Shown here: piece after piece, positions 42,136 to 59,591 of the stretch
Numbering within the stretch: position 1 is the stretch's first letter
Layout: the number at the start of each line of letters is the position of its first letter
Origin: Candidatus Saccharimonadales bacterium
Lineage (GTDB): Bacteria > Patescibacteriota > Saccharimonadia > Saccharimonadales > EFPC-124
Direction of reading: 5' to 3'
Length of the DNA stretch: 64,000 nucleotides
Assembly: GCA_035710125.1 (NCBI GenBank)
Contig: DASTDY010000063.1
Location: 150,446 to 214,445, forward strand
Position numbers and translations under genes: made by a program
Notes under the pieces: model-generated
Seen by the model: only the letters and a program-made list of their open reading frames with translations
What the model was told of the DNA's origin: nothing
Database searches by the model: none

Positions 42136-42921
42136 ATGGAAACGGTACCACACAATAATCTTTTAGACCTAAAAGGTAAGACAGCCATTGTAACAGGGGG
42201 TGGAGTGGGCATTGGTTTTGGCATTGTGTATCGGTTTGCCGAAGCAGGTGCAAACGTGGTAGTCGCCGATATTAGCCAGGCTAACTTAGACGAAGCAAAA
42301 TCGAAACTAGAAACCAAAGGTTGGCACGTTGCCTATACCGTGGCCGACGTCTCGAAAGAAGAAGATGTTGTGGCCATGTGTCAGACTGCCGTTGATACTT
42401 TTGGCACGTTAGATATTTTGGTAAATAATGCCGGCATTTATCCCATTAAGCCGGTTGCCCAGCTAAGCACCAAAGAGTTTGATAGGGTAATTGCGGTTAA
42501 CCTGCGTAGCGTATTCATGGCTACACAAGCCGCGACCAAGCACATGATTGCCGGTGGCAAGGGTGGGAAGATCATTAACATTACATCTATAGATGCCCTG
42601 CATCCCTCTATGGTTGGCCTTGCGCCATACGATTCTTCTAAGCATGGCGTGTGGGGTTTCACAAAGAATGTTGCGTTAGAGCTTGCGCCGCATAATATTT
42701 GGGTTAACGCTATCGCACCTGGTGGAATAAATACCCCCGGTACAGGATCGCAAGATGGTAAGCCCGCTCCTGGCATGGAGGCCTTTATGGCAAAAATACC
42801 CATGAAACGTTTTGGGCATATAGATGAAATCGGTAAAGCAGCCTTGTTTTTGGCGTCTGACATGTCTTCTTACATGACTGGGGCCCAGGTAGTTGTAGAT
42901 GGTGGCGTGTTGTTAAGCTAG
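42136..42921 (+). CDS. Short-chain dehydrogenase/reductase (SDR)
   Basis: GKTAIVTGGGVGIGFG, NNAG, catalytic YDSSKHGV, PGGINTP. Confidence 0.85.
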   Translation: METVPHNNLLDLKGKTAIVTGGGVGIGFGIVYRFAEAGANVVVADISQANLDEAKSKLETKGWHVAYTVADVSKEEDVVAMCQTAVDTFGTLDILVNNAGIYPIKPVAQLSTKEFDRVIAVNLRSVFMATQAATKHMIAGGKGGKIINITSIDALHPSMVGLAPYDSSKHGVWGFTKNVALELAPHNIWVNAIAPGGINTPGTGSQDGKPAPGMEAFMAKIPMKRFGHIDEIGKAALFLASDMSSYMTGAQVVVDGGVLLS

Positions 42922-42961: not shown

Positions 42962-43393
42962 ATGGAAAACACAGAATCTCTAGTCCGTAATTATCTCAAA
43001 AGGCCCGAAGTCCAGGTAATGCAGCTGGCCACTGTGCGTGATGGCCAGCCTTGGGTGTGTACTGTCCATTTTTGGGCAGACGACAGCATGAGTTTTTATT
43101 GGGTAAGTAATCCTGAAACCCGCCATAGCCAAGAAATCGAAGATGGCTGCAAAGCGGCAATTGCTGTCGTGGTAAACTCGGTCGGTAAACCTATTGGCAT
43201 CCAAGCCGAGGGTGACGCATACTTGGTGGAAGACATGGCCGAACTGCAACGAGGTGCTGCTGGTTGGGCCTCCCGCCATAACCGTTCAACTGATTTGGGC
43301 GTTAAAAGGCTATACAAATTTGCCCCTAGGCTTGTTACCTTGTTTGATACACAAAGCTTCCCGCAGGATCCCCGTAAAGTATGGCATCTGTAA
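42962..43393 (+). CDS. Pyridoxamine 5'-phosphate oxidase-like protein (third paralog)
   Basis: VMQLATVRDGQPWVCTVHFWADDSMSFYWVSNPETRHSQEI. Confidence 0.55.
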   Translation: MENTESLVRNYLKRPEVQVMQLATVRDGQPWVCTVHFWADDSMSFYWVSNPETRHSQEIEDGCKAAIAVVVNSVGKPIGIQAEGDAYLVEDMAELQRGAAGWASRHNRSTDLGVKRLYKFAPRLVTLFDTQSFPQDPRKVWHL

Positions 43394-44658
43394 AACCAGT
43401 ATTTGCATTGGTGGACTGCAATAATTTTTTTGCCAGCTGCGAGCGGGTATTCCGGCCAGATTTATGGGATAAACCTGTGGCGGTGCTCAGCAACAACGAT
43501 GCCTGTATTGTTGCCCGTAGCAACGAAGTAAAAGAGCTAGGTGTCTATACTGGCCAACCTTACTTTAAGGTGCGTGATGTCTTAGCTGAACATAAGGTGC
43601 ATTTATTTTCGGCCAATTTTGGTATGTACGGCGATTTTTCGCAGCGTGTAGTGCAAATGCTGCAACAAGAATCACCAGATATAGAGGTGTATTCGGTAGA
43701 TGAATCATTTTTAGAAATCTCGCATCTACCTATTAAGGACTACGAAGAGTGGGGAAGGCGGCTGAGCCAAAAAGTATACCAATGGACCGGCCTGCCGGTT
43801 TCGGTGGGTATTGGCTCTACTAAAACACTCGCTAAGGCGGCAGCTGACTATACAAAAAAGCATCCAGAAAAAAACGGAGCATTTTCTGTTGTTAATAACG
43901 AAGAAGAGCGCATTAGGCTACTAAAATGGCTGCCGACTAGCCATGTTTGGGGTGTGGGCTGGCGTACCACGCCAAAACTTGCGGCTCGGGGTGTAACTAC
44001 AGCTTACGATTTAACGCAGGTGAGTTTACAGTGGGCTCAAGAGCAGCTAACTATTAGGGGTGTGCGCACAATCCGCGAATTACTTGGCGAGAGTTGTTAT
44101 GGCCTTGACACCTCACCCGAACCACAGCAATCTATTGCCCGCACCAGGACGTTTGGCCACACTGTTCGCGACTATTACCAGCTAGAAGGCGCAATTGCTA
44201 CCTTTGCCGCCAAAGCCGCTGCTAAATTGCGCCAGCAAAAAGAGGTAGCGGGCGAGGTAATGACATTTTTGCGCAGTCCAAAACACGCCGAGGTACGCGC
44301 TGGCGGTTCGCATATAGTTAAGCTTCAGCAGCCAAGTGCAGATACGGGTGCGATTATTACAGCCGCATTACAGGCGCTGAACCAGGTGTACGACCCTGAG
44401 TTTGGCTATAACAGGGCAGGCGTGGTGCTTTTGAACCTTGGAACTTCCCAGCAATTAGCGCTTAGCACAGACGTGCAAAAGCTTAGCCGTAACGCTACTT
44501 TAATGAAAACGGTAGATGGTATAAACCGGCGTTTTGGCACACGCCTTGTCCGCCACGCAAGTGAGCATGTGGAGGCAACAAACTGGCATAGCAAAAGGGA
44601 GTTGTGCAGCCCTGCATATACCACAAATTGGCGGCAATTACGTACGGTGCATGCGTAG
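43381..44658 (+). CDS. umuC: Y-family DNA polymerase UmuC-like
   Basis: FALVDCNNFFASCERVFRPDL..KPVAVLSNNDACIVARS, SVDESFLE, GIGSTKTLAK. Overlaps the preceding gene by 13 nt. Confidence 0.8.
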   Translation: MASVKPVFALVDCNNFFASCERVFRPDLWDKPVAVLSNNDACIVARSNEVKELGVYTGQPYFKVRDVLAEHKVHLFSANFGMYGDFSQRVVQMLQQESPDIEVYSVDESFLEISHLPIKDYEEWGRRLSQKVYQWTGLPVSVGIGSTKTLAKAAADYTKKHPEKNGAFSVVNNEEERIRLLKWLPTSHVWGVGWRTTPKLAARGVTTAYDLTQVSLQWAQEQLTIRGVRTIRELLGESCYGLDTSPEPQQSIARTRTFGHTVRDYYQLEGAIATFAAKAAAKLRQQKEVAGEVMTFLRSPKHAEVRAGGSHIVKLQQPSADTGAIITAALQALNQVYDPEFGYNRAGVVLLNLGTSQQLALSTDVQKLSRNATLMKTVDGINRRFGTRLVRHASEHVEATNWHSKRELCSPAYTTNWRQLRTVHA

Positions 44659-44695
44659 GTGTGTCTGGCGCGGACACACTCGTTAGATTTTTTGC

Positions 44696-45154
44696 TTAGA
44701 TTTTGATGTTAGGGATTCGACCGCTTCGGGCCAAGCGGCAAAGCACTACTCTATCCCTACAACCGAAGAGCCTGATGAGCTTGGTGATTTGATCGTCGAC
44801 ATACCGACGCTTCAGATTCAAATCCAGGGCGATTTTTCTGGCCCGGTCACCCTTGCCAAGTGCCGTCAGGATCGTCATCTGCTCTTCGTCTAGGACGATG
44901 TGATTAAAGCTTTTGACCTCGCTCAAGGGGTTAAGCGGATCCCCAGGTTCGGCGGAATCCAGGTCGTCGAAGACAAGCCCACGGTCTTCTGCATTTTTAA
45001 CGGCTGCGGCAGTACAGTCGGCGTCGAGTTCGGAGTAGACGTTAGCCAGACGGTAGTTGACCTGCCTTTCGCTGAGACCTGTCTCTTTGGCGACCTCTCT
45101 TGCGGTAAGACCTCGCGCTTTAAGCCTGAGACACAGAAATTCTTCGTCGTTCAC
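44696..45154 (-). CDS. Protein with two LuxR/GerE-type HTH modules, G+C-rich
   Basis: EEFLCLRLKARGLTAREVAKETGLSERQVNYRLANVYSEL and EEQMTILTALGKGDRARKIALDLNLKRRYVDDQITKLIRLFG. Confidence 0.5.
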   Translation of the reverse strand: MNDEEFLCLRLKARGLTAREVAKETGLSERQVNYRLANVYSELDADCTAAAVKNAEDRGLVFDDLDSAEPGDPLNPLSEVKSFNHIVLDEEQMTILTALGKGDRARKIALDLNLKRRYVDDQITKLIRLFGCRDRVVLCRLARSGRIPNIKI

Positions 45155-45233
45155 TGTACAGCTTTCTCCAAGATGTACGTCCGCGCCAGAATTTACACTA
45201 AAGGATTATGCGGCAAAGAGCAAACTTGATCGG

Positions 45234-45261
45234 TTGACAAAAAAATGTGTAACATTATACT
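45234..45261 (+). promoter_or_regulatory. Near-consensus sigma-70-type promoter for 45298..45897
   Basis: TTGACA, 16 nt, then TATACT in an AT-rich divergent region. AAAGGAG RBS at 45287-45293. Confidence 0.5.
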
Positions 45262-45297
45262 ATAGCCGATCACTGTTTTTGCTGCAAAAGGAGTAGT

Positions 45298-45897
45298 GTG
45301 ACCGCTCACCCCAAAACGCTGGTCGTGCAGTACATCGCTCAGACGACACGCAGAAACCCGACGCCCGATCCGCAGTTTCTGGCAGAAAAGAACGCCACCA
45401 CGTGCCGCCTGCAGCTAATGGTGGACGGCACTGGGTATGACGGTGTCGGCGTTGCTCTGCGTAAGAAGCAGGCTGAGGTCATTGCATACGGCGACATTCT
45501 GCGCCAGATGGTGGCGAACGGGTTGTGTGTGCCGGATGCCGCAGAGGCGCTAGCCTATGTGGATGACCTGGTTGCCCAGGAGCAGGCGGCCGTAGAGGCG
45601 GCTAGCCAGCAAGAAACCGTGGGCGAAAGTCGTCTACGAAAGGCGTTCGCAACCCTGTGCAGGCCGTACGGCGATAACCACGTCTGGCATCTTCAGTTGT
45701 TCGCGCAAACCGCTGGTATCAGGGAGGCGGTGTACACCCAGCATCAGACTGGCGAGTCGACCTGGGAGGTCAACGTGAGCATTGTTCTCCCTGGCGCGCC
45801 GCTCAGGTCGGATACGTACACCGGTAGCAAGAAGTCGTGCAGGCAAAGGGCTGCAAGCGACCTGATCGCTCGCATCAAGGAGCACATGCAGCAGTGA
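45298..45897 (+). CDS. Hypothetical protein with two dsRNA-binding-domain-like modules, G+C-rich
   Basis: GTG start. Helix-2-like motifs GVGVALRKKQAEVIAYGDILRQM and GSKKSCRQRAASDLIARI (compare GxGxSKKxAExxAAxxAL), each preceded by helix/beta-like segments. No catalytic domain. Confidence 0.45.
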   Translation: MTAHPKTLVVQYIAQTTRRNPTPDPQFLAEKNATTCRLQLMVDGTGYDGVGVALRKKQAEVIAYGDILRQMVANGLCVPDAAEALAYVDDLVAQEQAAVEAASQQETVGESRLRKAFATLCRPYGDNHVWHLQLFAQTAGIREAVYTQHQTGESTWEVNVSIVLPGAPLRSDTYTGSKKSCRQRAASDLIARIKEHMQQ

Positions 45898-45999
45898 GCA
45901 ACCCGCCTGGGCTGGACAATGCCGTCCTGCCTAGGCGGTCACTCCAGGTTAAAGAATTTTTTAGTAGGTTTTTTACACATTAATTAGTAAGGCGTAGGG

Positions 46000-46028
46000 T
46001 TTACTCAACCCTTAATTTGTGCTATAGT
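46000..46028 (+). promoter_or_regulatory. Putative promoter of tRNA-Glu
   Basis: TTTACT, 17 nt (ending in TGC), then TATAGT, 13 nt upstream of the tRNA 5' end. Confidence 0.45.
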
Positions 46029-46041
46029 TTTTATCTGTTAC

Positions 46042-46116
46042 GGCCTCATCGTCTAACGGTTAGGACACCAGGTTTTCATCCTGGCAATCGGAGTTCGATT
46101 CTCCGTGAGGTCACCA
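46042..46116 (+). tRNA. tRNA-Glu (anticodon UUC)
   Basis: Acceptor GGCCUCA/UGAGGUC, anticodon arm CCAGG-UUUUCAU-CCUGG, T-arm CGGAG-UUCGAUU-CUCCG, encoded CCA. Confidence 0.85.
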
Positions 46117-47788
46117 TAAGATCATTTTCTGCTTTCAGCACCTGAAAGACCGGAGACACCCCTGTAAAAAGGGGTGTTTTTGGTGTTCCAGGTTTTATTT
46201 CTTCGTATGTTGGCAAACGGTCAAATAACGCACCGAAAAGCTGGGCTTTTTTGACTGGATCAATCTGTTTTATGAGTAGTTCATCGAGGTGTTCCAGGAA
46301 ATATCGTACCTTAGCGAGAATCTTGTTAATATCGGTTGGTTTTTCTGCCTCTTTCTTAGCTTTAAGTGCTTGCAAGTCTTTGATTTGTTGTTCAATACGA
46401 ATGATATCCTCCTCAATGAATTTGATGACCGTGATGGACTCTACGGCGCGCAGTTTGGCGACATTAGCTCGCACATCCTTTTGTAGCTCGGCCATGCGTT
46501 CGTCAACGCCCTGGATTTCTTGTATGTAGCTTTGGTTATGCATATTCCACTCCGCGGCAATCGCGTTCATGACTGTATCGATCCGTTCATTCGAGACAGT
46601 TAAGTTACTAATAAATGCTCTCACAGTGTCCTCCAATTCCTGTTTTGGTACGCGATAATAGTGGCCGTGGTTGCTGCAATGATAGGCTGGATAGCGTTTG
46701 CCGGATTTGCCACGTGAGGCGCTGCCAAGCATCGGCCGTTTACATTCGGAACATAGTACGAAGCGGCGATATGGAAAATCTTCGTTTCGTGAACCTTTGT
46801 TGATCAAATGCTCGGCCGGACGTTTAGTAAGGATCTGTATGTCGCCGTCTTTATCCTCAATGATAAACTTCTTGCCTTGCATGGCCCGGTTCCATAAGTC
46901 GATAGAAACGAGACCCTTAAAGGCACATCGTACAGGCTTTCCCTCTGTCCACTTCTCAGCATTCACGCCCGCATAAATCGGGTTAGCAATGAGTTTTTGC
47001 ATGGCTTTTACAGTTAAGGGATTGCCGCCGGTTTTAGAGATAATCTTAGTGCGGTCATTCTTGTCGCGCTTGTACTGTACGCGAGTGCGGAAGCCAAGTT
47101 CGTTTATTTTATCGACAATCTCGGAGTCGTGCATGGCACCTTTGGCGCGTAATTCTAGCATCATGCGGAGGTATTTGGCTTCGGTAGGGTGCGGTTTGAG
47201 AACGCAACGCTTGCCATTTTTAGTCTCCACCTTCTCGCTCGTCAGGCCATAGGGTGCGCGGCGCATCCAGTAGCCCATTCGAGCGTAGCGTATTTCTGCT
47301 CCGATCATACGACTCATGATGTCGCGTAGCTCGTCCTTTGCCCGTTCGGCTTCTAGAATCTCAGTCTTTTTGCTGGGCGAAAATTTGCTCCAATCGTACT
47401 CAACGCCGAGGTGCTCCAGCGTATTAATTTCCTCGCCGCTGATAATCCCATAGACATCAATCAAGCCAACATTACATTCTTTAAGTTGGTTTTTGAGCGG
47501 GCTGTAAAAGTCAGAGCCGCCGCGAGTGAAGCGGTCAATAGATTTGATAATAAATAAATCGATTTCGTTTTTTGGGTCTTTGCAGTAATCGATAGCTGGC
47601 TGCATCGGCTGCTGTTCTTGAGAGGCCGACTCCAGAAATACAAAGTACTGTTTAACGGTTATGCCGCGTGAAGCCGCGAAACGCTCAATTTGCTCGCGCT
47701 GTGCTTCGGGTGAATCTCCGTCCGTACCTTGCTTGGTGGTCGATACACGGATAGCGGCAACGGCGTTCTTGTTAGCATGCGGTGACAT
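46076..47788 (-). CDS. Large serine recombinase (integrase) 1
   Basis: Resolvase domain AAIRVSTTKQ...SIDRFTRG, a recombinase domain, zinc ribbon CSECKRP...YHCSNHGHYY, and a long coiled coil. The last 13 codons (MVTSRRIELRLPG) are antisense to tRNA-Glu. Confidence 0.85.
   Translation of the reverse strand: MSPHANKNAVAAIRVSTTKQGTDGDSPEAQREQIERFAASRGITVKQYFVFLESASQEQQPMQPAIDYCKDPKNEIDLFIIKSIDRFTRGGSDFYSPLKNQLKECNVGLIDVYGIISGEEINTLEHLGVEYDWSKFSPSKKTEILEAERAKDELRDIMSRMIGAEIRYARMGYWMRRAPYGLTSEKVETKNGKRCVLKPHPTEAKYLRMMLELRAKGAMHDSEIVDKINELGFRTRVQYKRDKNDRTKIISKTGGNPLTVKAMQKLIANPIYAGVNAEKWTEGKPVRCAFKGLVSIDLWNRAMQGKKFIIEDKDGDIQILTKRPAEHLINKGSRNEDFPYRRFVLCSECKRPMLGSASRGKSGKRYPAYHCSNHGHYYRVPKQELEDTVRAFISNLTVSNERIDTVMNAIAAEWNMHNQSYIQEIQGVDERMAELQKDVRANVAKLRAVESITVIKFIEEDIIRIEQQIKDLQALKAKKEAEKPTDINKILAKVRYFLEHLDELLIKQIDPVKKAQLFGALFDRLPTYEEIKPGTPKTPLFTGVSPVFQVLKAENDLMVTSRRIELRLPG
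46156..46181 (+). terminator. Rho-independent terminator of tRNA-Glu, lying inside the recombinase ORF on the other strand
   Basis: ACACCCCT-GTAAAA-AGGGGTGT followed by TTTTT. Confidence 0.7.
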
Positions 47789-47791
47789 GAT

Positions 47792-47926
47792 TTAAGCTTT
47801 CGTTTCTTCCTCGATGATAATTTGCAAGATCAAATCAGCTATCAGTTCAACACGCCGTTCTTCTGGCATAGTCACCGTTTCCGGCAGCTTTATTTCTTTA
47901 TTTTGTGAGCCTTTTGTTCTTGCCAT
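47792..47926 (-). CDS. Small ORF (44 aa) directly upstream of recombinase 1; possible accessory/directionality factor
   Basis: Below the ORF-track size cutoff. Manual translation: MARTKGSQNKEIKLPETVTMPEERRVELIADLILQIIIEEETKA. GAGGG RBS. The stop is 3 nt before the recombinase ATG. Confidence 0.3.
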   Translation of the reverse strand: MARTKGSQNKEIKLPETVTMPEERRVELIADLILQIIIEEETKA

Positions 47927-47939
47927 TTTACCCTCGTAG

Positions 47940-47958
47940 CACTTACAATATGTAATAC
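47940..47958. promoter_or_regulatory. Operator-like inverted repeat, copy 1 (CACTTACA-ATA-TGTAATA)
   Basis: Shares 15 fixed positions with 56945..56963. Lies 14 nt upstream of the small ORF/recombinase operon. Confidence 0.5.
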
Positions 47959-47966
47959 CCTAACTA

Positions 47967-47981
47967 TAACAAATTGTAATA
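47967..47981. promoter_or_regulatory. Operator-like inverted repeat, copy 2 (TAACA-AAT-TGTAATA)
   Basis: One mismatch to the TTACA-N3-TGTAATA core. Lies 24 nt from copy 1. Confidence 0.4.
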
Positions 47982-48158
47982 TCTATGACAATAGAAAATG
48001 TAAACATCGCTGTTAAACCTTTAACCTTAATCTCACCCCTCATATATTCTCTTTATATTTTTCCTCTCTTAATATATAAATATATAGAAGATAAGACACA
48101 TAGAATCATTAGAGCATTTAATTGTAAGACAGCAAAAGAAGCTTATAGGTAAATAGAT

Positions 48159-48977
48159 ATGGATAAGACTGAATCTAAAACTAGAAGAAAATTAAATGCA
48201 GAACAATTAGAAGTCTTAGAGCTTCTATATAAATTTAGATTTGGTAGTAATGATCTAATTGCTCAGTATTTTGGTAAGAAGAATCGGTCGTTTGTGTTTA
48301 AGCGGCTATCGATACTGTTAGAGCAAGAACTTATTGGTAAGCGTTTTAATAGTAGCTATCGTATTAAAGGTAAGCCAGCTGCATATTACTTGTTGCCTGC
48401 CGGTGCTCGCAAGCTCCAAGAAACCCGTACCGCAGAAGACGAAGCAGTAAACATCAAAAGCATCTACAAAGACAGAACCGTATCAGAAACATTCATCCAG
48501 CATTCATTGAATATCTTTACTGCGTATAACCAGCTAAAGGCACGATACGGAGATGAGCTAGCATTCTTCACTAAAACTAATCTAACAAGCTACGAGCACT
48601 TTCCTAAGCCATTACCCGATGCGTTTGTATCACTTGAAATCAAGAACACTACCCATTACTTCTTCATAGAGATAGTGGAAGATACCCAACCATTCTTTAC
48701 AGTGGTAAGAAGCATCAAGAAATATCTCGATCACAAAGAAAGTGGCGAATGGGCTATAACCGAAACGGACTATCCGGCTGTCTTATTTATTTGTGAGTCA
48801 ACGAGTCTGCAAAAGAGACTACAGAAGCAAATCACCAAGATGCTGGATACATCATGGGTAGATGATCTAAACTTTGCTACAACCACTAAATCCGAACTTA
48901 CGTCTCTTGTCGAAAATGATGCCATTTGGCAGAAAGTAACCGAGCCAGACGATAAGCTCCCTTTACAAGACACCTAG
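48159..48977 (+). CDS. Replication-relaxation family protein
   Basis: LNAEQLEVLELLYKFRFGSNDLIAQYF...FVFKRLSILLEQELIGKRF...KPAAYYLLPAGARKL follows the winged-helix N-terminal pattern of the Replic_Relax family. Confidence 0.5.
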   Translation: MDKTESKTRRKLNAEQLEVLELLYKFRFGSNDLIAQYFGKKNRSFVFKRLSILLEQELIGKRFNSSYRIKGKPAAYYLLPAGARKLQETRTAEDEAVNIKSIYKDRTVSETFIQHSLNIFTAYNQLKARYGDELAFFTKTNLTSYEHFPKPLPDAFVSLEIKNTTHYFFIEIVEDTQPFFTVVRSIKKYLDHKESGEWAITETDYPAVLFICESTSLQKRLQKQITKMLDTSWVDDLNFATTTKSELTSLVENDAIWQKVTEPDDKLPLQDT

Positions 48978-49128
48978 AACTTGTCACTTGCTTGCAAGTG
49001 GGAAGTCCCTGTTTGTATATTACAAACAGGTTAACTCAGCCCTACTAAGCTACAATTAACCTTGGGAGAGCGAGTCCTTACTCCAACTAGGCTTTGTCGA
49101 GCGTCCTGCTGTTACCTCGACACAGACG

Positions 49129-49491
49129 CTATTTCGGCTGCCAAAGTTGCACTAAGTTGCCTTCTGGATCTACCAACGAGGCAAAGATACCATTTGGATA
49201 CTCTTCAGGATCCCGCTTTACTTCAATGCCGCCATCTGTTAATTGAACAATCATTGCGTCCAAATCGTCCACCCGAAAATTAAGTGCCCATGTTTTGCCG
49301 CTACCGTTAAAATGCTCACTGTCGGCACTCATAAAAGCAAAAACTGTAGGCCCCTGCTTTGGTACCCATTCGGGATCTTCGTACGATGCTGGTGGTAGAG
49401 GTACCCCTAGGTACTTCTGATACCACTCACCTAACATTTCTGGATTCTGTGCGACGATAAATACACCGCCTATACCGTTGATTTTCTGCAT
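49129..49491 (-). CDS. VOC (glyoxalase/bleomycin-resistance) family protein
   Basis: INGIGGVFIVAQNPEMLGEWYQKYLGV ... FASLVDPEGNLVQLWQP. Confidence 0.65.
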   Translation of the reverse strand: MQKINGIGGVFIVAQNPEMLGEWYQKYLGVPLPPASYEDPEWVPKQGPTVFAFMSADSEHFNGSGKTWALNFRVDDLDAMIVQLTDGGIEVKRDPEEYPNGIFASLVDPEGNLVQLWQPK

Positions 49492-49659
49492 ATGTTTATT
49501 GTAGCAGTAGACAACGAGATCGGAGTGGAGAGGTCTATTCCAACTTTTTGACGAAGATATATAAATCTAATGTCTATAAAACCACCATCTTTGAGACACC
49601 TAAAAAGAGAATCTTCATCAGTCCCGCCGCTATGTCTCTAGATCAGTTATACTAGGCGT

Positions 49660-50277
49660 ATGAGTGATCTATATTTCATCGGTGGAGCTCCGCGAACCGG
49701 AAAAACTACCGTGGTCCAAAAACTTCTAAAACAAAAACCAATTCTAGCAGCTTCAACAGATGCTATTCGCGCGGTTGCCCTGGGACTTGTTTCCAAAGAG
49801 ACAGACCCTCATTTGCATCGTGTTGAGCGCGGCCCTTTTGGGTCAGAGGAACACCTGTCCAATTTGAAGAGTAACCAGGAGCTACTTTTGAAGCAAGAGC
49901 TTGCGTCAGCTGAAGCAACTTGGAAGTCGGTCTTAGATTTTGTTGGCTACTACCAAAAGGACGCTAAAGATGCACTCGTGGAGGGTGTTGCAGTATTGCC
50001 AAGTGAGCTTGCAAAAGTAAATTTTGACTTCAAGGCAGTTTTTATCGTCAACCTAACAGATCAAACGGAAGAGATTCTGAGCCACGCACGAGAAAATTCG
50101 TTCGACTGGCTATCAAAGTATGATGATGAAACGATTCGCCAATACGCCACCTTTAATTATCGGTGGAATCAATACTACGCCGAAGAGGCTGTAAAGTACG
50201 GGTTCCATGTTGTCGAGATTGAACCTAAGAACTTTCATCAGAGTGTAGATACGGCTGTTGAGCTTCTAAGCGCTTGA
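49660..50277 (+). CDS. P-loop kinase-like protein
   Basis: Walker A GGAPRTGKTT at the N-terminus. Size and layout of small-molecule/nucleotide kinases. Confidence 0.5.
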   Translation: MSDLYFIGGAPRTGKTTVVQKLLKQKPILAASTDAIRAVALGLVSKETDPHLHRVERGPFGSEEHLSNLKSNQELLLKQELASAEATWKSVLDFVGYYQKDAKDALVEGVAVLPSELAKVNFDFKAVFIVNLTDQTEEILSHARENSFDWLSKYDDETIRQYATFNYRWNQYYAEEAVKYGFHVVEIEPKNFHQSVDTAVELLSA

Positions 50278-50648
50278 TTCCTGATTTCACAACCTTGTCA
50301 ACGGCCTTAGATAACATAAGTTAAATCATGCCCCACAGTTTAAGCGCAAAAGCTTCGACAGCGTATTGTCTCAAAAACCTTCATTTTAGACACGCTATTA
50401 TTGCGTTTTGAAACATGATTTATACCTAGTTTTATGCATATCGTAGTCTTTTGTATCTGTAATAATCTCATGGCTGAAGACTTTGCCAACACGTGCAACA
50501 CAGACGGCAGCTTTAAAACCCAGTCAGCAACCACGTTCACTCCAAGGACGACCCCCTAAGGACTTTATCTACAAGGTTTCCAGAGCGAGATAGGTTAGTA
50601 CGGTAGTATAATAAGATAAAGCAGCTGAGAGAGCAGCGAAAGGAAAAT

Positions 50649-51068
50649 ATGGCACTAGAAGTAAATTGGCTAGCAGTAGCAATAGCCACTATTGTTGGAA
50701 CGGCGATTGCTGGAATATGGTATCAGGAGCCAGTCTTTGGTAAAGCATGGCGAAAGGCCACTGGGGTAACACCGAAACAGTCAAAGCAGGCAGGCAATGC
50801 TCCGATGGTTGTTCTGTTGATTGCAAACTCCGTAACTGCAGTCGGCTTGGCAAGCTTAGTCTATCTAACTTCCCACTTCTTTGAAAATTATACAGTTGGG
50901 TTTGCTCTGCTGAATGGAGCAGTCGCAGGACTGGCGCTATCGGCAACCACTCTTGTCGTGCATAATGGCTTTGAGCTAAAACCTAAGAGGTTAACGCTGA
51001 TCAATGTTGCTTATCAAATGGTAATCTTTTTAAGCATGACGCTTGTCATTGGCTTGTTTGGCGCGTGA
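50649..51068 (+). CDS. DUF1761 family membrane protein
   Basis: NWLAVAIATIVGTAIAGIWYQEPVFGKAWRKATG plus three further TM helices. RBS AAAGGA. Confidence 0.55.
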   Translation: MALEVNWLAVAIATIVGTAIAGIWYQEPVFGKAWRKATGVTPKQSKQAGNAPMVVLLIANSVTAVGLASLVYLTSHFFENYTVGFALLNGAVAGLALSATTLVVHNGFELKPKRLTLINVAYQMVIFLSMTLVIGLFGA

Positions 51069-51078
51069 TCAAAATTTA

Positions 51079-51909
51079 ATGCACATTTTCACCACATCCC
51101 AAGGCACCCTTGAATACCGAATAGTCGGTAACGGCAATAAGACGGCTATTATCTTCCCTGGCGGTCACATGGACGCGAGCGTGAACTTAGGTGAAGACTT
51201 TTTTATCAAAAGGGGCTACCAGGTGATAACATTGTCACGACCGGGGTATGGAAAAACCTCACTTGCTACTGGACCTTCACCCGATAGCTTTGCAGATACT
51301 GTTGCTCAGCTGCTCGAAAGTCTTAATATCCATAAGATAGTTGCAGTAGGTATTTCGGCCGGAGGGCGCAGTGCAGTTCGTCTGGCTGCAAAGTACCCTA
51401 GAGTAGTAGAAAAACTAATCCTGCAATGTGCCACAAGTTTTATGCCATGGCCCGATGCCCAGACCCGCCGAGTTGCGCGTATTGCGTTTAATCCCTCCAT
51501 GGAGAAGTTCACTTGGCAGATCATGCGAAGAATACTTAAAGCAAGCCCTCGCGCGGGTCTAAAGATGATGCTGGGCAATATGAGTACGCTTAACCCGGAT
51601 GATGTGATAGATAGCTTAAGTAAGGGACAGACAGATGGCCTGATTAATATTTTCGCCCATCTGCAATCTGGCAAGGGTTTTATGAATGATCTGGCGCAAA
51701 CATCAGGCTCGGCAAAAGATGTGCATGTGCCTACATTGATTATTCATAGCAAGTATGACAAAAGCGTTTCGCTAGAGCATGCAAAGAAGCTTCATTCTGA
51801 AATTGCAGGCTCAAGACTTTTTATAACCACAGCAGAAAGCCATATGATTTGGTTTAGTACCCAGTACGATCAAATTCAGAAGGAAATGGGAGCCTTTTTA
51901 GACTTTTAA
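51079..51909 (+). CDS. Alpha/beta hydrolase
   Basis: Nucleophile elbow VGISAGG, C-terminal HSKYD...H. ATG 51079 preferred over the TTG at 51043. Confidence 0.7.
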   Translation: MHIFTTSQGTLEYRIVGNGNKTAIIFPGGHMDASVNLGEDFFIKRGYQVITLSRPGYGKTSLATGPSPDSFADTVAQLLESLNIHKIVAVGISAGGRSAVRLAAKYPRVVEKLILQCATSFMPWPDAQTRRVARIAFNPSMEKFTWQIMRRILKASPRAGLKMMLGNMSTLNPDDVIDSLSKGQTDGLINIFAHLQSGKGFMNDLAQTSGSAKDVHVPTLIIHSKYDKSVSLEHAKKLHSEIAGSRLFITTAESHMIWFSTQYDQIQKEMGAFLDF

Positions 51910-51948
51910 TAAGGTGCCAATCTCGCATGGATACGATATGTGGGACGT

Positions 51949-52683
51949 TCATAACCCGCTCACCACAAGCAATACTCCCACCCCATGCGCTACAACCGCA
52001 GGCCATAAACCATATCGCATCCGCAGGAAAGCACACACCAACCCTTCGTATAAAGTAAAGATAAGCAATGCTATACCTACATCGGTGGCTATGAAGGCTA
52101 AGAATATATGCGCTGCCGCAAAGGTTAGCGCCGAGAGGAGTGCAGCGAGTAACGGTTTGTACAGCTTTTCGAGATAACCTTGTAGATAGCCCCTGAAAAG
52201 CAACTCCTCCATGAAATTCCCTAGTAAGGTTATGGCAAGTAAAGCTGGGAGTAAGCCTAGCGCTACGCTACCGCCGCGTTCTGCCAGCGGAGTAAACTGG
52301 TAAGCAATAAGGAGCGGTGCGGCAACAGCGCCAGCTCCGAGCAAGCCGTATAGCAGGGTCTTAGGCGTAAATTTGCCCCATTTTAGATAGGACTTCATTT
52401 GTTTGTTGGTTGCCAAAACAAGCACGGCAAAAACCAAAGAAGCTAGTCCTAGTGATACAAGAATAAGCGGATCATTAATAAACCGTATCCACAATACTCC
52501 ATTATGAGTGCCCAATTCCCAGAGGTTATGTACGGTCATTGCATCCCGCATGAGCATAAAGGCTAAAATAAGTAGGAATATTCTAAAAGCCATGGCTTGT
52601 TTACCTTTGTAGAGAAAATAGAGGGCCCCAAGCAATAGCAGGCCAGGGAGTATGTGAAGGCTGTAGTCGATAAGCGTAAGCAT
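51949..52683 (-). CDS. CPBP family intramembrane glutamic endopeptidase (CAAX protease / Abi-type)
   Basis: EELLFRGYL and FAAAH motifs in a polytopic membrane protein. A TATAAT box lies in the short upstream gap. Confidence 0.75.
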   Translation of the reverse strand: MLTLIDYSLHILPGLLLLGALYFLYKGKQAMAFRIFLLILAFMLMRDAMTVHNLWELGTHNGVLWIRFINDPLILVSLGLASLVFAVLVLATNKQMKSYLKWGKFTPKTLLYGLLGAGAVAAPLLIAYQFTPLAERGGSVALGLLPALLAITLLGNFMEELLFRGYLQGYLEKLYKPLLAALLSALTFAAAHIFLAFIATDVGIALLIFTLYEGLVCAFLRMRYGLWPAVVAHGVGVLLVVSGL

Positions 52684-52732
52684 TTGTTGCTATTATAGCA
52701 ATCTTTGGGCGTAGCAAGTGGCTAAGGAGAAC

Positions 52733-55375
52733 TTAAGATACCTTACCCTTCTTAGGAAATAAAGGTTTTGCCTGCTTATCTTTTGTTTGGGTTCTCTTTG
52801 CAGGAGTCTTTCGTTTTGCCGCAGCCTTGGCCTTAGGCTCTTTCGCCTTTGTGGCTGGCTCACTCTTTTTAGAGGGGTCAGGAATTTCCTTTGGTCTTAT
52901 ATATTCTTTGCCGTAGTTCTTCTGCGAAGCAGCAACAGCTCGTTTAGCAACGTTCTCGTCGCCCGATCCCTCTAGTACAATTGTCTCGCCCGAAAATGCT
53001 TCCTGTGCATCACCAGCCGCAATACGCATATAGAAGTTATACTTTGGTAAGTGTGTGATCTCACCCTCTTCAATATAACCTTTGAACTGATGGAGCATTA
53101 ATTCCTCGTCGGCTGGATTCCCGGTACGGAAACAAACAATCGTGCCTGCGTTGTCTAGGATATTTTCGGTGAGCTCGCGGTCTTGCTGTGAAGTAGATTG
53201 TTCGGCCATTGTTAGGAATAGCTTATACTTGCGTGATTCTGACAATATTTGCATAAACAGCGGTGATACAAAATTCTGGAATTCATCCACATACAGGTAG
53301 AACGGACGCCGGTCTTCTTCTTTTGTATTGATGCGGCGGTAGGCCGCAAGCTGCAATCTCGTAAGAATAGCAGTGCCGAGCACGGCCGAAGTATCTTCAC
53401 CAATCGAACCCTTAGCTAGGTTACAGATAAGAATCTTGCCATTTAGTATTTCATCGAAGTCGATGGTTGATTTCTCTTGTTCCAAGATGCGTCGTGTCAC
53501 TACGGAACGTTGGAAACGCCCAATCTTGGTAGTGACGCCATCCATGGCTTTATATTTCTGGTAGTTACCTGCCAGGCCAAACTCGTTGATCCAAAAGTCT
53601 TTAATATCTTCATCGTCTAATGTGGCGACAACTTTCTTACGGAATTCTGGATTGTTAAGTAGCTTGCGGATAGTGAAAAGGGTTGCACCTTCGACGGCAA
53701 AAGCAGTGTGTACGGCATTTCGCAAAACGTGCTCAATGCGATGTCCGCCCGAATCATCCTCGGAGAAAATCTTGCGGAAAACGGAGACGATCGACTCCGT
53801 AACGAAGTCCTTCGCAAGTAGTAGCTCATCGCCAGTAAGACCCTCTGGCAATTCAAGTAAGTTCAAGCCAATAGGATTGCTGATGTCTGCCGGATTAAAG
53901 TAAATGACATCCTTCATCCGCTCCTCTGGAATATACTTGAGCAGCTTTGCCGCCATGTCTCCGTGCGGATCGACTACGGCAACGCCCTTGCCGTTCTGTA
54001 TATCTTGCAGGATTGCATATTGCAGTAGCGTTGTTTTGCCATTACCCGTACCACCGATAATGTACATATGACGTTCACGTTCATCTGTGGTCAGGCCAAT
54101 GTTTGTTGTTTCGCCGTGATGGTTATTGTTACCGAGCACTACGTCAAAAGTACTGTCATCAGTACGATTCTTAAGAAGTGTTGGTGCTGGCAGAGTTCGG
54201 CTATGGGAACGAGTCATACCTTCAGTTGTAATTGCGCCATAGGGGAAATGGTAGATACTGGCAAGCTCAGATGCTGCAAGAATATTAGTACCAAACACAA
54301 AGAATGATGGCATACGACGTTCAAGCTTGAACATGCCCATCTTTTGACCCAGCCAATCGGGATGTAGCCGAGGCATGTGTAATTGTTGTGTGCTCACTGA
54401 GTTGAGGGGAGCAAGTGAACTGGTGATACCCGAAGATAAATCATAAAGTCGCGAGTTACTTGCGGCTGAGACCAATATACGGATATCTGTTCTAAAAAGT
54501 GGTTGGTTTAACTTCGCCAGCACACCTGCAAATACTTCTTGTTGTGCCTGGGTAAGCTCGGGTTCATCGCGGCGTATGAATAACGAAACGACAAGCAGTA
54601 CCAATAACAAGGATGCAGTAGCCTTTAGATCATTGGTAAAAAGGCCGTACACAGCAGTGATTAGCCATACCCATATGGGACGGCTTAATATAAAGTATCG
54701 TAACTTACGGTCTAGGACGGCATAGCCAGTACCCTCAATCTTGGCACGCAGCCGGTTAGTCCAGTATGAATGGTGCGGTGCGAGCACGAGCTGCATAGTC
54801 ACCTTCTCATCTGGCTTTAGCTTAGTCATTGCTCCTGTAATAAATGTAACTGGGTCACTTTGATCGAGTGCTTCGTGGGCTTGCAAAGGATAGGCGTAAT
54901 GATAGGCTTGTTTGACTTCAAAGACACGGCTGTGGCTACTACGAGCTTCCCCTGTTGCCGATTCCAATATTCTGAACTGGGCATCGGGCAAGTACGCTGC
55001 TAATTGCCGCTGAAGCGTTTCGGCATCGCCTGGATGTATATGCATAAGGTAGCGAATACCTTCTTTGCGAGTGGCACTAATTTCAAGCGGCGCGACTTCA
55101 TTACGATTGATAAGCTGCCCTATGACCGCGAAAAGCTGCTGCGTAGCAAGCGGTGACTTCTCTATATGCTTAGGCGGTGTGATCTCAAGAATGACGCGTG
55201 GGTGGTTACGCATCTTCCAGAAATTCCACATACCTTTTAGCACGGTATAAGTTGGTTCAAGTATCCAACGGTAAATCAAATACACCACGATGATTAACAA
55301 GGCAACACTAAGAGAACGGTCAAAGAGATTGTGACCCAAGAAATTCAGTGCGTCGTCTAGTGTAAGCATAACCAC
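52733..55375 (-). CDS. Membrane-anchored TraD/VirD4/FtsK-like coupling ATPase
   Basis: TM helix, a ~190-aa domain, two TM helices, then Walker A IIGGTGNGKTT, VVDPHGD, Walker B FYLYVDEFQNF, TMAEQSTSQ. Lys-rich tail. Start is GTG 55375 or ATG 55369. Confidence 0.7.
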   Translation of the reverse strand: MVMLTLDDALNFLGHNLFDRSLSVALLIIVVYLIYRWILEPTYTVLKGMWNFWKMRNHPRVILEITPPKHIEKSPLATQQLFAVIGQLINRNEVAPLEISATRKEGIRYLMHIHPGDAETLQRQLAAYLPDAQFRILESATGEARSSHSRVFEVKQAYHYAYPLQAHEALDQSDPVTFITGAMTKLKPDEKVTMQLVLAPHHSYWTNRLRAKIEGTGYAVLDRKLRYFILSRPIWVWLITAVYGLFTNDLKATASLLLVLLVVSLFIRRDEPELTQAQQEVFAGVLAKLNQPLFRTDIRILVSAASNSRLYDLSSGITSSLAPLNSVSTQQLHMPRLHPDWLGQKMGMFKLERRMPSFFVFGTNILAASELASIYHFPYGAITTEGMTRSHSRTLPAPTLLKNRTDDSTFDVVLGNNNHHGETTNIGLTTDERERHMYIIGGTGNGKTTLLQYAILQDIQNGKGVAVVDPHGDMAAKLLKYIPEERMKDVIYFNPADISNPIGLNLLELPEGLTGDELLLAKDFVTESIVSVFRKIFSEDDSGGHRIEHVLRNAVHTAFAVEGATLFTIRKLLNNPEFRKKVVATLDDEDIKDFWINEFGLAGNYQKYKAMDGVTTKIGRFQRSVVTRRILEQEKSTIDFDEILNGKILICNLAKGSIGEDTSAVLGTAILTRLQLAAYRRINTKEEDRRPFYLYVDEFQNFVSPLFMQILSESRKYKLFLTMAEQSTSQQDRELTENILDNAGTIVCFRTGNPADEELMLHQFKGYIEEGEITHLPKYNFYMRIAAGDAQEAFSGETIVLEGSGDENVAKRAVAASQKNYGKEYIRPKEIPDPSKKSEPATKAKEPKAKAAAKRKTPAKRTQTKDKQAKPLFPKKGKVS

Positions 55376-55432
55376 GTCATAATTCTGTTAATTATACAAA
55401 CTAATATAACTGATGAGCAAACAGAAGGCTAG

Positions 55433-56677
55433 CTACTCAAAGTAGTAAAGGGGTAATATGTATTTCGATCCATCTTGGACTGGGTGTCTATGGTTTGCGC
55501 TAAATCTAGCTAGATATTCGTTGTCTACAAAGTCAATTGCATTCCGAAATATATTACTGCCGCCACGCTCCAGGCCATTAATTGTTTCAGCCATTGATCC
55601 GACTAACTGATTTTGACCTATTGCAAGCACGAGCAGGTGCTCATCTGTGCCTCTTCTAATACTGCGGTTTTGCCGATGTGTGTCATAGTGCGTAAGCAGA
55701 GGATCGGCGCTGTCATGCTTGATATAGCGCCCTGATTCAATAATGAGAACGATACGAGGATCGGGGTTGTAGCCTTTTGCCTGTAGGGATTGATACTTAC
55801 TTTCGCTATTGCGGATGATGAATTTTACATCCCTAAAGCTTAGCTTATGTTTGGCGACTAGTCTCTGAAGCCATTCTGCTAGGTGATCTTTGCTCGTTTG
55901 GCTTGTCGTGAGTTCTTGGGAGAATACTTTCTCAACAAATTTTGTGAAATCTCGTGAATCTAAATCAAAAAATTCTACAAAATCCAAAGCCTTTATGTAA
56001 GAGTCTCGCTGATCTGAAAAAGATTTGCCAGCGATGGGAATAAATACTTTTATTTTATTATCAAACTCCGACGCCCTCAAGAAGTGACTAAGTGTCTCGA
56101 TAAAATATATACCTGCATCCCCGGATCGATCTGCATCTTCTATGACGATGTATATTTGTTTCTGCCTGATATCTTTCTTGGCTAGAACATCTTTAAATAT
56201 GTCCTGAATCTGAAATACGCGTTTAGCCGGGCTTGTAGTGAAGAAATCAGCCAACTTACTAACTATCGCCCCGGATCCCTTGAAAGGTATATTTAACGCA
56301 GCGCCAGCGGCTTTAGTGAGCTTCTTTTTAACATCTCCAGACGTACCGTCCATAATCTTTAACGTTTTTGCAAAATCTTTTGGCGCAACTTGCCGCACAA
56401 AATCCAAAACAAACCCTTCCCATAGATTTGTTCGCTCAGGATACTTCCAAGCATCAAAATGTGCCCATATAACATCATCGTTATCGAGTTTGCTGTGTAC
56501 CTTCTCGAGCAATGTACTTTTACCCATGCCGTAGTTACCTACGATGCCCAAGAGGGATTTATTGGAAATTGTTTCGATTTTGCTCTTTAGGCTATCTACA
56601 TGAACGTCAAAAGAAAAAAGATCCTCTGTTTTATAGTCTTCGACCAAAAACAGGGGGTCATTTATCATTGTTGCCAT
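55433..56677 (-). CDS. KAP-family P-loop NTPase without an obvious transmembrane insert
   Basis: Walker A GNYGMGKST, then FDAWKYPERTNLWEGF (KAP signature), Walker B IYIVIEDADRS. The ATG lies 5 nt after the XRE stop, with AAGGA inside the XRE 3' end. Confidence 0.6.
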   Translation of the reverse strand: MATMINDPLFLVEDYKTEDLFSFDVHVDSLKSKIETISNKSLLGIVGNYGMGKSTLLEKVHSKLDNDDVIWAHFDAWKYPERTNLWEGFVLDFVRQVAPKDFAKTLKIMDGTSGDVKKKLTKAAGAALNIPFKGSGAIVSKLADFFTTSPAKRVFQIQDIFKDVLAKKDIRQKQIYIVIEDADRSGDAGIYFIETLSHFLRASEFDNKIKVFIPIAGKSFSDQRDSYIKALDFVEFFDLDSRDFTKFVEKVFSQELTTSQTSKDHLAEWLQRLVAKHKLSFRDVKFIIRNSESKYQSLQAKGYNPDPRIVLIIESGRYIKHDSADPLLTHYDTHRQNRSIRRGTDEHLLVLAIGQNQLVGSMAETINGLERGGSNIFRNAIDFVDNEYLARFSANHRHPVQDGSKYILPLYYFE

Positions 56678-57888: not shown

Positions 57889-59310
57889 ATGCAAGCACAA
57901 CCAAAAGCAGTCATCTTTGCCCGTGTATCGAGCAAAGCACAGGAGGACGAGGGATATTCACTCGACTCACAACTCAAACTTTTACGGGCTTACTGCAAGA
58001 AGAGACGGCTCGATGTCGTTAAGGAGTTCAAGATTGCGGAAACCGCCTCAAAGACGCAGCGCCGTACCGAGTTCCGCGCATTGCTGACGTATATTACAAA
58101 GAATAGGATTCACCACTTTGCTGTAGAGAAAACAGACAGGGCTGCGCGGAATATTAAGGACGCATCCGATATCTACGATTGGATCGAAGGTGACGAAAAG
58201 CGCGTCTTTCACTCGGTTAAAGAAGGGCTGGAGTTGCACAAATGGTCAACCTCACAAGTAAAATTCATGTGGGGCATTTTTGTAGCGTTCGCCAAGCAGT
58301 ATACCGATAGCCTCCGCGAAGAAGCGATGAAGGGCTGGTACGAAAAGTTAGCACAAGGTTGGCTGCCAGCTCCGCCTCCTCCGGGATACAAAACAATTAC
58401 GGAGTACGGTAAGAAAATTCATGTGCCCGATACGGACATTGTTCATAGCATGGTGCACATCTTTCAGCTCGCAAGCTTGCCCGACTATAACGTGAGGCGA
58501 GTAACTGAAGTCTTGGCCGAGCTGGGCGTTACGAGCCGCAAAGGACGGCCATATTCTAAAAGCTATGTCCACAAGACACTGACGAACCCTTTTTATATCG
58601 GCATTAACCGTTTTAATGGCAAGGATTATCCAGGCGCGCAGGAACCGATTATCAGCAAAGAGCTGTTTTATGAGGTGCAAGAAAAGCTCCGTAGACCTCG
58701 TAATGGGCCCGGCAAAAAACACAATCCGGTTTTCAAAGGTATGATCCACTGCACTGATTGTGGCTCAATGGCAACCTGGCAACAACAGAAAGGTCGTTAC
58801 TACGGTGCTTGCCAACGTACAAGCGAGGCATGTCGACGTAAGCCGCTTCTCCGTGGAGATCGTGTCGAATCACAAGTAATCGAAAAACTGGAGGCGATTA
58901 AAGATCGTGGTGGCAAGCTTTTTGATGAGCTTAAGGTTGCCCTGAATCTGGAGCACTCTGCATATATCGGTATGCATCGTAACCAAGTGATGAAGTCTTT
59001 GAAAAGTCAGCTAAGGAGGCTTCAAGTCATGGAAGATGCGTTGTATGAAGATAAGCTAGCGGGCGTGATATCGGACGGTCGATATCAGTCCAAGCGTGCA
59101 GATTTCGCCGATCAAGCTGAGCAAATAATGGCCCGCTTATCGAAGCTCGATGAGATTCAGGCCGAGCGGGATGTTGAGCTCCCGGGTGTAAAGAACAAAA
59201 TTGTAGCGCTCTATCTAAAAAGCACGCCTGGCCAGAAACGTACTATCTTGAGTACTGTGTTTAAGAAAATGATTCTGAGTGGCGGTTTATTAGTGATTGA
59301 GCGAACGTAG
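57889..59310 (+). CDS. Large serine recombinase 2
   Basis: AVIFARVSSKAQ...VEKTDRAARN resolvase domain, a recombinase domain, zinc ribbon CTDCGS...YYGACQ, and a coiled coil. Confidence 0.85.
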   Translation: MQAQPKAVIFARVSSKAQEDEGYSLDSQLKLLRAYCKKRRLDVVKEFKIAETASKTQRRTEFRALLTYITKNRIHHFAVEKTDRAARNIKDASDIYDWIEGDEKRVFHSVKEGLELHKWSTSQVKFMWGIFVAFAKQYTDSLREEAMKGWYEKLAQGWLPAPPPPGYKTITEYGKKIHVPDTDIVHSMVHIFQLASLPDYNVRRVTEVLAELGVTSRKGRPYSKSYVHKTLTNPFYIGINRFNGKDYPGAQEPIISKELFYEVQEKLRRPRNGPGKKHNPVFKGMIHCTDCGSMATWQQQKGRYYGACQRTSEACRRKPLLRGDRVESQVIEKLEAIKDRGGKLFDELKVALNLEHSAYIGMHRNQVMKSLKSQLRRLQVMEDALYEDKLAGVISDGRYQSKRADFADQAEQIMARLSKLDEIQAERDVELPGVKNKIVALYLKSTPGQKRTILSTVFKKMILSGGLLVIERT

Positions 59311-59512: not shown

Positions 59513-59591
59513 AATTCTTCCTTAGTATAGCACCGCTATATTGCTATTAGCTCCCATAGATGTCAATAAGGACATTCCTGCTACAATCGAT

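Follow-up and report, generated by a model that had tools for sequence, protein, structure and literature searches.

What would a protein made of two double-stranded-RNA-binding domains (dsRBDs) and without a nuclease be doing in a member of the Candidate Phyla Radiation (CPR)? As described so far, dsRBDs in bacteria are essentially confined to RNase III, whose C-terminal domain they form (PMC3867540). The question is raised by a divergent pair of genes in a window of 64,000 nt from Candidatus Saccharimonadales (CPR/TM7; contig DASTDY010000063.1, positions 150,446-214,445 of the forward strand), where a tandem LuxR/GerE-type helix-turn-helix (HTH) protein of 152 aa and a protein of 199 aa are encoded between a Y-family polymerase gene and tRNA-Glu (Table 1). 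The 199-aa product is identical to the NCBI hypothetical protein VFO38_05090 of Candidatus Saccharimonadales. An earlier note on this DNA had read it as a tandem dsRBD protein lacking a nuclease domain, and both open reading frames (ORFs) lie where that note placed them, with the two peptide segments quoted as dsRBD signatures present in the translation.

Taken from the single sequence the dsRBD assignment is weak, and at the level of the family it is strong. The Pfam dsrm (PF00035) match of the 199-aa protein runs over residues 5-70 and covers profile positions 1-65 of 66, whereas several of its homologues exceed the Pfam cut-off in domain 1 or domain 2 with 28.8-46.8 bits; the counterpart of dsRBD 2 in one long homologue described below (P0005) scores 40.3 bits. 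Against PDB sequences the top match of the single sequence was DHX9 dsRBD1, which was not significant, the NKKDA of DHX9/MLE dsRBD1 aligning with RKKQAE of the 199-aa protein. The family profile matched the tandem dsRBDs of MLE over both domains (E=1.4e-7), with dsRBD 2 aligned to MLE dsRBD2, followed by Loqs, DHX9, TRBP and RNase III.

Structure prediction agrees with the profile comparison. Modeled with AlphaFold2 (AF2) from a 12-sequence alignment (A3), the 199-aa protein folds into two alpha-beta-beta-beta-alpha units (residues 5-73 and 128-198) joined by a long helix, at a mean predicted local distance difference test score (pLDDT) of 89.6. A model built from three near-identical sequences had reached a pLDDT of 52, with the C-terminal domain alone visible, and was superseded by the 12-sequence model. 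The PDB gave 15 Foldseek matches with E<=1e-3, every one a dsRBD protein and most of them cofactors with tandem dsRBDs (Loqs-PB, 3.9e-7; MLE dsRBD1/2, 8e-7; TRBP, R2D2, NF90, DGCR8 and DRB4), together with the Dicer-like proteins DCL3 and DCL4. Single domains superpose on solved dsRBDs with root-mean-square deviations (rmsd) of 1.7-3.5 A; full-length TM-scores are low and reflect the differing relative placement of the two domains. The two dsRBD-like segments proposed in the earlier note thus reappear as two folds in the AF2 model, in Foldseek and in the family profile.

The best-conserved columns of the family are canonical dsRBD positions, namely K6 and V9 in helix 1, then G51, K56, A59, E60 and A63, and A185, A186 and L189. 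The basic motif that opens helix 2 is present twice, as R55-K56-K57-Q-A-E60 and as K178-K179-S-C-R182-Q-R-A-A, in keeping with the KKxAK pattern; K56 is invariant in the family, and K178 and R/K182 are largely conserved. Between the domains, residues 76-122 (47 residues) carry a net charge of -4, and the length of this linker is variable across the family.

The closest structural and profile matches are thus tandem dsRBDs of eukaryotes (MLE/DHX9 dsRBD1-2, Loquacious/TRBP/PACT, R2D2, DRB4/HYL1, DGCR8 and NF90), which share with the 199-aa protein the tandem alpha-beta-beta-beta-alpha arrangement, the KKxA(K/E) start of helix 2 and the absence of catalytic residues inside the module. The likeness is in the domains and not in their assembly (rmsd ~17-54 A in full-length Foldseek alignments): identity is 11-19%, the 199-aa protein is bacterial and lacks the GPxH histidine, and its linker is predicted to be one long helix where theirs is a flexible loop. 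The dsRBD of bacterial RNase III is alike in fold and has a similar helix-2 motif, and RNase III is among the weaker profile and fold matches, the RNase III model TIGR02191 matching the fused homologues in its dsRBD part only. In contrast to RNase III, the 199-aa protein has two dsRBDs instead of one and no Ribonuclease_3 catalytic domain according to Pfam, NCBIfam and PHROGs, and its divergence is too great for it to have arisen recently from rnc. Neither a nuclease nor any further domain was found in it with Pfam, NCBIfam, PHROG or PADLOC, and the AF2 model leaves no extra domain, as the earlier note had expected. We therefore describe it as a nuclease-free protein with two predicted dsRBDs, which belongs to the dsRBD fold family and is neither RNase III nor a member of any known anti-defense family.

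The relatives of the protein were sought by an exhaustive HMMER search of 1.84 billion representative proteins; a word-based search returned two close relatives, and the family alignment added only P0013 and P0014. Five proteins of 1330-1464 aa (P0004, P0005, P0007, P0008 and P0011) end in the same module, which takes up their last ~200 residues. These are true homologues: dsRBD, linker and dsRBD align end to end with the 199-aa protein, the whole of which corresponds to residues 1141-1336 of P0004 (E=1.4e-18 in the 1.84-billion search, 4.5e-29 locally against the profile of alignment A4). The five fused proteins are 39-47% identical to each other and 21-35% identical to the 199-aa protein in the module, P0004 and P0005 being its nearest relatives among them both in identity (32-35%) and in G+C content (~61%). 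Stand-alone forms of 194-245 aa also occur (P0006, P0009, P0012 and P0013), and three proteins have three dsRBD units instead of two (P0008, P0010 and P0011).

In the long proteins the module is fused behind ~1140 residues that comprise a DnaG-like core and a second Toprim-like region, whereas the 199-aa protein is the tail only, has its own promoter and contains no DnaG core. The core matches PHROG DNA primase families (to 1e-14) and the PADLOC 'RTasDnaG-like' model (2e-8), with weak Pfam matches to DUF3854, Toprim_3 and DnaG_N, and the Toprim glutamate and DxD are kept in conserved TEGEFKC and LDRDPxGKG motifs. Past the dsRBD part of the RNase III model these giant proteins have no NCBIfam match, and no match in the plasmid and phage databases; no paper on them was found, and literature searches returned nothing specific on primase-dsRBD fusions or on stand-alone bacterial dsRBD proteins. 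A second conserved region in the giants, at about columns 890-960 of A4 (HELDGLAL...VVALNSSF...VLSG..P.S.YDAF.YDG), resembles a degenerate second Toprim, and residues 723-806 of P0005 match another PHROG primase family.

Because its distant homologues include the tails of giant DnaG/Toprim primase-like proteins, the module appears to point to an origin in replication or in mobile elements and not in RNase III or viruses. Two other origins were considered and rejected. An origin from the host rnc gene does not fit with the divergence of the protein, its foreign composition and the primase tails as closest relatives. A pseudogene fragment of a primase gene does not fit with a conserved promoter and ribosome-binding site (RBS) of its own, the lack of an upstream primase remnant and the recurrence of stand-alone proteins of the same size.

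The genomic contexts of the homologues differ. P0008 (locus L094) belongs to an island with an HTH gene and with a serine-recombinase gene that overlaps tRNA-Glu(UUC) at its 3' end; the target and layout of this island are the same as those of the island 3' of tRNA-Glu in the window. The P0008 gene there is followed by two ParB_N-like genes and an operon of the cyclic-oligonucleotide-based antiphage signaling system (CBASS; CD-NTase and Cap15), all between tRNA-Glu and tRNA-Lys (L094 7250-16368). Other fused copies are in ordinary-looking chromosomal contexts. P0009 (L085) comes from another Saccharibacteria lineage and was found on 1 contig, compared with 5-27 contigs for its neighbors. It lies within ~2 kb of a short-chain dehydrogenase/reductase (SDR) gene (L085 6283-9498) whose product is 58% identical to the SDR of the window (42136..42921), which may be either ancestral linkage or coincidence; NUDIX genes and a weak nucleoside-deoxyribosyltransferase/TIR-like ORF are also in its surroundings.

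Both genes of the pair are of foreign composition, as the earlier note had claimed. The dsRBD gene has 60.5% G+C overall and 72.5% at third codon positions (GC3), the LuxR gene 52.9% and 60%, compared with a GC3 of 46-47% in the flanking polymerase, SDR and PNPOx genes and 49% G+C for positions 1-44658 of the window. The pair was also correctly placed as an insertion next to tRNA-Glu: in 8 of 12 related Saccharibacteria loci the polymerase gene runs straight to tRNA-Glu across a gap of 88-1040 bp, which is 1384 bp in the window, and relatives of either gene were found at none of 80 polymerase loci. Other small and unrelated ORFs fill the spacer in some relatives (the gaps of L010, L011 and L006, and L013, where an ORF at 11365-11727 is GIY-YIG-like by sequence pattern alone), so that the stretch preceding tRNA-Glu varies between relatives and is repeatedly occupied by small cargo. 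tRNA-Glu itself is the polymerase gene's ancestral neighbor, and it is here that the island 3' of the tRNA has integrated; neither an att-like copy nor a long direct repeat of its 3' end was found in the window. The pair is lineage-specific cargo, horizontally acquired.

The 199-aa protein has two close relatives, in L001 (88% protein identity) and L002 (86%), both with the full ORF and the RBS, and the promoter hexamers are identical in the two with a variable spacer. The ratio of non-synonymous to synonymous substitution rates (dN/dS) lies significantly below 1, at 0.32-0.49 (Fisher p 2e-4 to 0.02), and the replacements between lineages avoid the helix-2 motifs. The dsRBD gene is therefore real, under purifying selection and fast-evolving, with an intact ORF in three lineages. 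Its synonymous divergence between the window and L001 is ~0.19, lower than that of the polymerase (0.34), LuxR (0.38) and SDR (0.48) genes; either the GC3 bias constrains its silent sites or exchange between strains is later than the divergence of the flanks.

The 152-aa protein has the two GerE/LuxR-type HTH units that had been read from it. It passes the gathering score of Pfam GerE (PF00196) with 37.3 bits (cut-off 23.5) in two matched stretches, NCBIfam LuxR-type models (the HTH parts of PedR, NarP, FimY and ErdR) cover residues 3-61 and 86-141, and it has neither a receiver nor a ligand or sensor domain; in the source annotation it is a 'LuxR C-terminal-related transcriptional regulator'. 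It is like the stand-alone regulators of the GerE/PedR type in having an HTH without receiver or autoinducer domain, with PedR as its best NCBIfam match, and differs from them in carrying two HTH units per chain (a 'single-chain dimer' layout) and in being an orphan: among 5.8 billion proteins one homologue was found, the L001 orthologue at 76% identity. The dN/dS of its gene is 0.34. In L002 a deletion of ~455 bp (L002 560-700; window equivalent ~44750-45205) has removed nearly the whole gene and left its last ~55 nt in place together with the promoter and an intact dsRBD gene, from which it follows that the LuxR partner is dispensable. No LuxR neighbor was found beside the homologues outside the close relatives. 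The idea of an obligate two-gene module was thus not supported.

We give about even chances to a reading of the locus as an acquired two-gene cassette whose principal product is a non-catalytic binder of A-form duplexes that shares ancestry with the primase tail. A G+C-rich segment of 1.2 kb would have been inserted into the short polymerase-tRNA-Glu spacer in one Candidatus Saccharimonadales lineage, bringing with it the divergent tandem-LuxR protein, which is probably a local transcription factor. The near-consensus promoter would drive the main gene, whose 199-aa product, with its two dsRBDs spaced by a helix of ~40 residues, may bind the A-form duplex backbone (of dsRNA, possibly of an RNA:DNA hybrid) through the helix-1 and KKxA(E/K/R) surfaces of both domains without cutting it, and may in this way coat, bridge or sequester duplexes. 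The rigid helical spacer would set the distance between the domains. In the fused proteins a tail of two or three dsRBDs would plausibly grip the RNA-primed duplex, and fusion to DnaG-like enzymes suggests that holding such a duplex was the ancestral job of the module. The stand-alone form may then be a freed copy of this duplex-gripping primase tail, acting in trans on RNA-primed duplexes or on dsRNA in general.

Several observations weigh against this reading. The Pfam dsrm match of the single sequence is weak (E=0.005, 17.8 bits compared with a cut-off of 23 bits). The GPxH histidine of loop 2 contacts the 2'-OH and is used by many dsRNA-specific dsRBDs; in the beta1-beta2 loop of the 199-aa protein and its homologues neither this histidine nor the GP is present in either domain, and G-F / G-W is conserved there. 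Many accepted dsRBDs lack GPxH, so that the case for dsRNA specificity is weakened but not that for membership in the fold, and the domains may bind protein in a 'type B' role. The net charge of the 199-aa protein is about neutral. The family is extremely rare, comprising 10 clusters among the 1.84 billion representatives, and a neighbor-joining distance tree does not decide in which direction the stand-alone and fused forms derive from each other. That the long proteins act as primases is itself a prediction, and a homologue of the primase core is encoded by no ORF of the 64-kb window. Finally, the dN/dS of the neighboring polymerase and SDR genes (0.03-0.04) is ~10 times lower than that of the dsRBD gene, which indicates weak constraint on the latter.

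The homology of the entire module to the tails of five DnaG/Toprim-like proteins is also what speaks for a replication accessory that split off from such an enzyme and acts in trans with a DnaG-type primase of the host or of a mobile element, holding the short RNA:DNA primer-template duplex. The setting of P0008, in an island that carries a serine recombinase, HTH and ParB-like genes and matches the window island in its tRNA-Glu site and its layout, is consistent with this, as is the description of DUF3854/Toprim proteins as plasmid Rep proteins in cyanobacteria (PMC10079941). However, no primase core is present in the 64-kb window, beside the other stand-alone homologues or in the adjoining island 3' of tRNA-Glu, and dsRBDs are generally described as binders of dsRNA (PMC3867540). 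We consider such a specialized accessory unlikely.

The contrast in dN/dS with the neighboring genes, the deletion of the LuxR gene in L002 and the rarity and patchiness of the family, including the single contig with P0009 next to neighbors on 5-27, would all be compatible with decaying cargo, a functionless leftover of an old transfer that survives because the lineages are young. This is quite unlikely given the full-length ORF without frameshift, the same start context and the identical hexamers in three lineages, the significant excess of synonymous over non-synonymous changes with replacements that avoid the helix-2 motifs, and the recurrence elsewhere of stand-alone proteins of this size, in at least one case within another Saccharibacteria lineage.

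The earlier note had raised a role in anti-defense or RNA masking, in which a highly expressed, nuclease-free dsRNA binder would shield duplexes from RNase III or RNA-sensing immunity as eukaryotic-virus dsRBD proteins do, and an origin in phages or actinobacterial integrative and conjugative elements. dsRBDs without catalysis are the architecture of viral maskers, and Vaccinia E3-type and other DRBM proteins are among the structural matches; the promoter is strong, the gene is horizontally acquired and fast-evolving, and the surroundings are rich in defense and mobile genes (Gabija, a KAP NTPase, recombinases), and a fused homologue adjoins the CBASS operon. The matches in the viral structural library are nevertheless all dsRBD proteins of eukaryotic viruses and reflect the shared fold only: poxvirus E3/OPG065 and other DRBM proteins are tied to eukaryotic innate immunity and have no sequence relationship to the 199-aa protein past the fold, and no significant phage counterpart was seen. 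Relatives of the module were absent from 50,697 phage genomes, 72,556 plasmids and 2.9 million viral contigs. A tblastn search of the module and of P0004 against phages and plasmids gave no match, scans of the viral contigs with P0006 and P0009 returned nothing, and a search for related loci with alignment A1 found nothing in viral and Joint Genome Institute (JGI) metagenome contigs. When the long proteins were compared with viral contigs the Toprim segment alone matched viral primases, with the dsRBD module at 0 such loci. PADLOC did not match the 199-aa protein, its gene is chromosomal and outside the recombinase island, and its homologues are mostly in ordinary chromosomal settings. An origin in phages or actinobacterial elements was thus not supported by these searches, and masking as the function of the gene is improbable.

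A module for protein interaction, with 'type B'-like dsRBDs serving dimerization or the binding of a partner such as the LuxR-type protein or a nuclease, would suit the missing GPxH histidine, the near-neutral charge and a long linker helix with the potential for a coiled coil, but is highly improbable with the KKxA(E/R) start of helix 2 and the helix-1 pattern kept in both domains as the best-conserved columns of the family and with a LuxR partner that is dispensable.

Table 1 Features of the gene pair and its flanks (positions in the 64,000-nt window)
Feature	Position	Strand	Basis and remarks
Y-family polymerase ORF	43381..44658		IMS/IMS_C/DUF4113 domains
Terminator hairpin of the polymerase gene upstream; left boundary of the inserted segment	44658..44680	+	Terminator-like site, 10-bp stem
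Tandem LuxR/GerE HTH gene, 152 aa, GTG start	44696..45154	-	ORF listing and profile matches
Divergent intergenic region, 143 bp, 40% G+C	45155..45297	.	Sequence
Sigma-70-type promoter TTGACA-16-TATACT facing the dsRBD gene	45234..45261	+	11/12 consensus positions
RBS AAGGAG, 4 nt ahead of the GTG start	45288..45293	+	Read from sequence; kept in L001 (TTG start) and L002 (GTG start)
Stand-alone tandem dsRBD gene, 199 aa, GTG start	45298..45897	+	ORF listing
dsRBD 1, residues 5-73 (H5-17, E26-29, E34-42, E45-53, H56-73); RKKQAE opens helix 2	45310..45516	+	AF2 (pLDDT ~85-98 there), Pfam dsrm
Long acidic linker helix, residues 81-121	45538..45660	+	AF2 secondary structure
dsRBD 2, residues 128-198 (H128-139, E145-151, E155-164, E167-175, H178-198); SKKSCRQRAA motif	45679..45891	+	AF2 model
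G+C-rich hairpin just past the dsRBD stop codon, ~14 bp, -30.5 kcal/mol; possible terminator or transcript stabilizer	45903..45938	+	RNA fold
Promoter-like TTTACT-17-TATAGT (with TG) ahead of tRNA-Glu	46000..46028	+	Promoter scan
tRNA-Glu (UUC)	46042..46116	+	ARAGORN; Rfam tRNA 60.8 bits; synteny in relatives

The AT-rich divergent region and its near-consensus promoter are as the earlier note had described them (Table 1). In the 1.8-kb region 5 promoter-like sites were observed, compared with 0.8 expected from shuffles. The stop codon of the dsRBD gene is 144 nt from tRNA-Glu, and the hairpin just past it, close to the right edge of the G+C-rich segment, has a z-score of -3.4, with 0 of 200 shuffles equally stable. 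Its sequence is conserved in both L001 and L002. With the T-run ~18 nt away, it was not called by the terminator scan. A search for non-coding RNA families in 44000-48500 found the tRNA alone. A perfect 12-nt inverted repeat, TCTGGCGCGGAC / GTCCGCGCCAGA (44664-44675 and 45179-45190), flanks the LuxR gene. Its left arm sits within the polymerase terminator hairpin; our estimate for such pairs arising by chance in this stretch is about 0.1, and the repeat is partially conserved in L001 and L002.

Beyond tRNA-Glu, the gene of a 570-aa large serine recombinase (46076..47788, minus strand) overlaps the 3' 41 nt of the tRNA. The layout is shared with L094 (3999-5554), although the two recombinases are only 22% identical, which suggests that such elements form a class that inserts into tRNA-Glu and restores the 3' end of the tRNA with that of the recombinase gene itself. 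The cargo at 48159-56677 includes a Replic_Relax protein (48159..48977), a TrwB/HerA-like coupling-type ATPase (52733..55375; PADLOC mad8, 7e-21) and a KAP-family NTPase (55433..56677), together with DUF1761, alpha/beta-hydrolase and Rce1-like genes, and the whole looks like an integrative mobilizable or defense island. Just past a second serine recombinase (57889..59310) lies a complete Gabija system (59541-63783), with GajA of 685 aa (PADLOC E=1e-90; AAA_15 and OLD-like Toprim) and GajB of 737 aa (E=5e-93; UvrD-like helicase).

Compared with the RNase III-bound dsRBDs of bacteria, the cassette is unusual in providing a nuclease-free protein with tandem predicted dsRBDs in a CPR bacterium, and it leads to a small family that also has this module joined to DnaG/Toprim primase-like enzymes, an unreported architecture. 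The family is very rare and its organisms are uncultured, which limits its practical weight for now. A so far unrecognized use of dsRBDs by bacteria, independent of RNase III, is conceivable but doubtful: the tandem module would be a 'duplex clamp' that holds the RNA:DNA primer for the DnaG-type primases of integrative elements, and the free form in Saccharibacteria, which are reduced epibionts, would act in trans as a handler of primers or hybrids, or as a sequesterer of dsRNA that modulates RNase III or RNA-sensing immunity. If the module does bind hybrids or dsRNA, it would stand for a new way in which priming in mobile elements is assisted and for a bacterial counterpart of the eukaryotic dsRBD cofactors, and would offer a compact natural scaffold for duplex binding.

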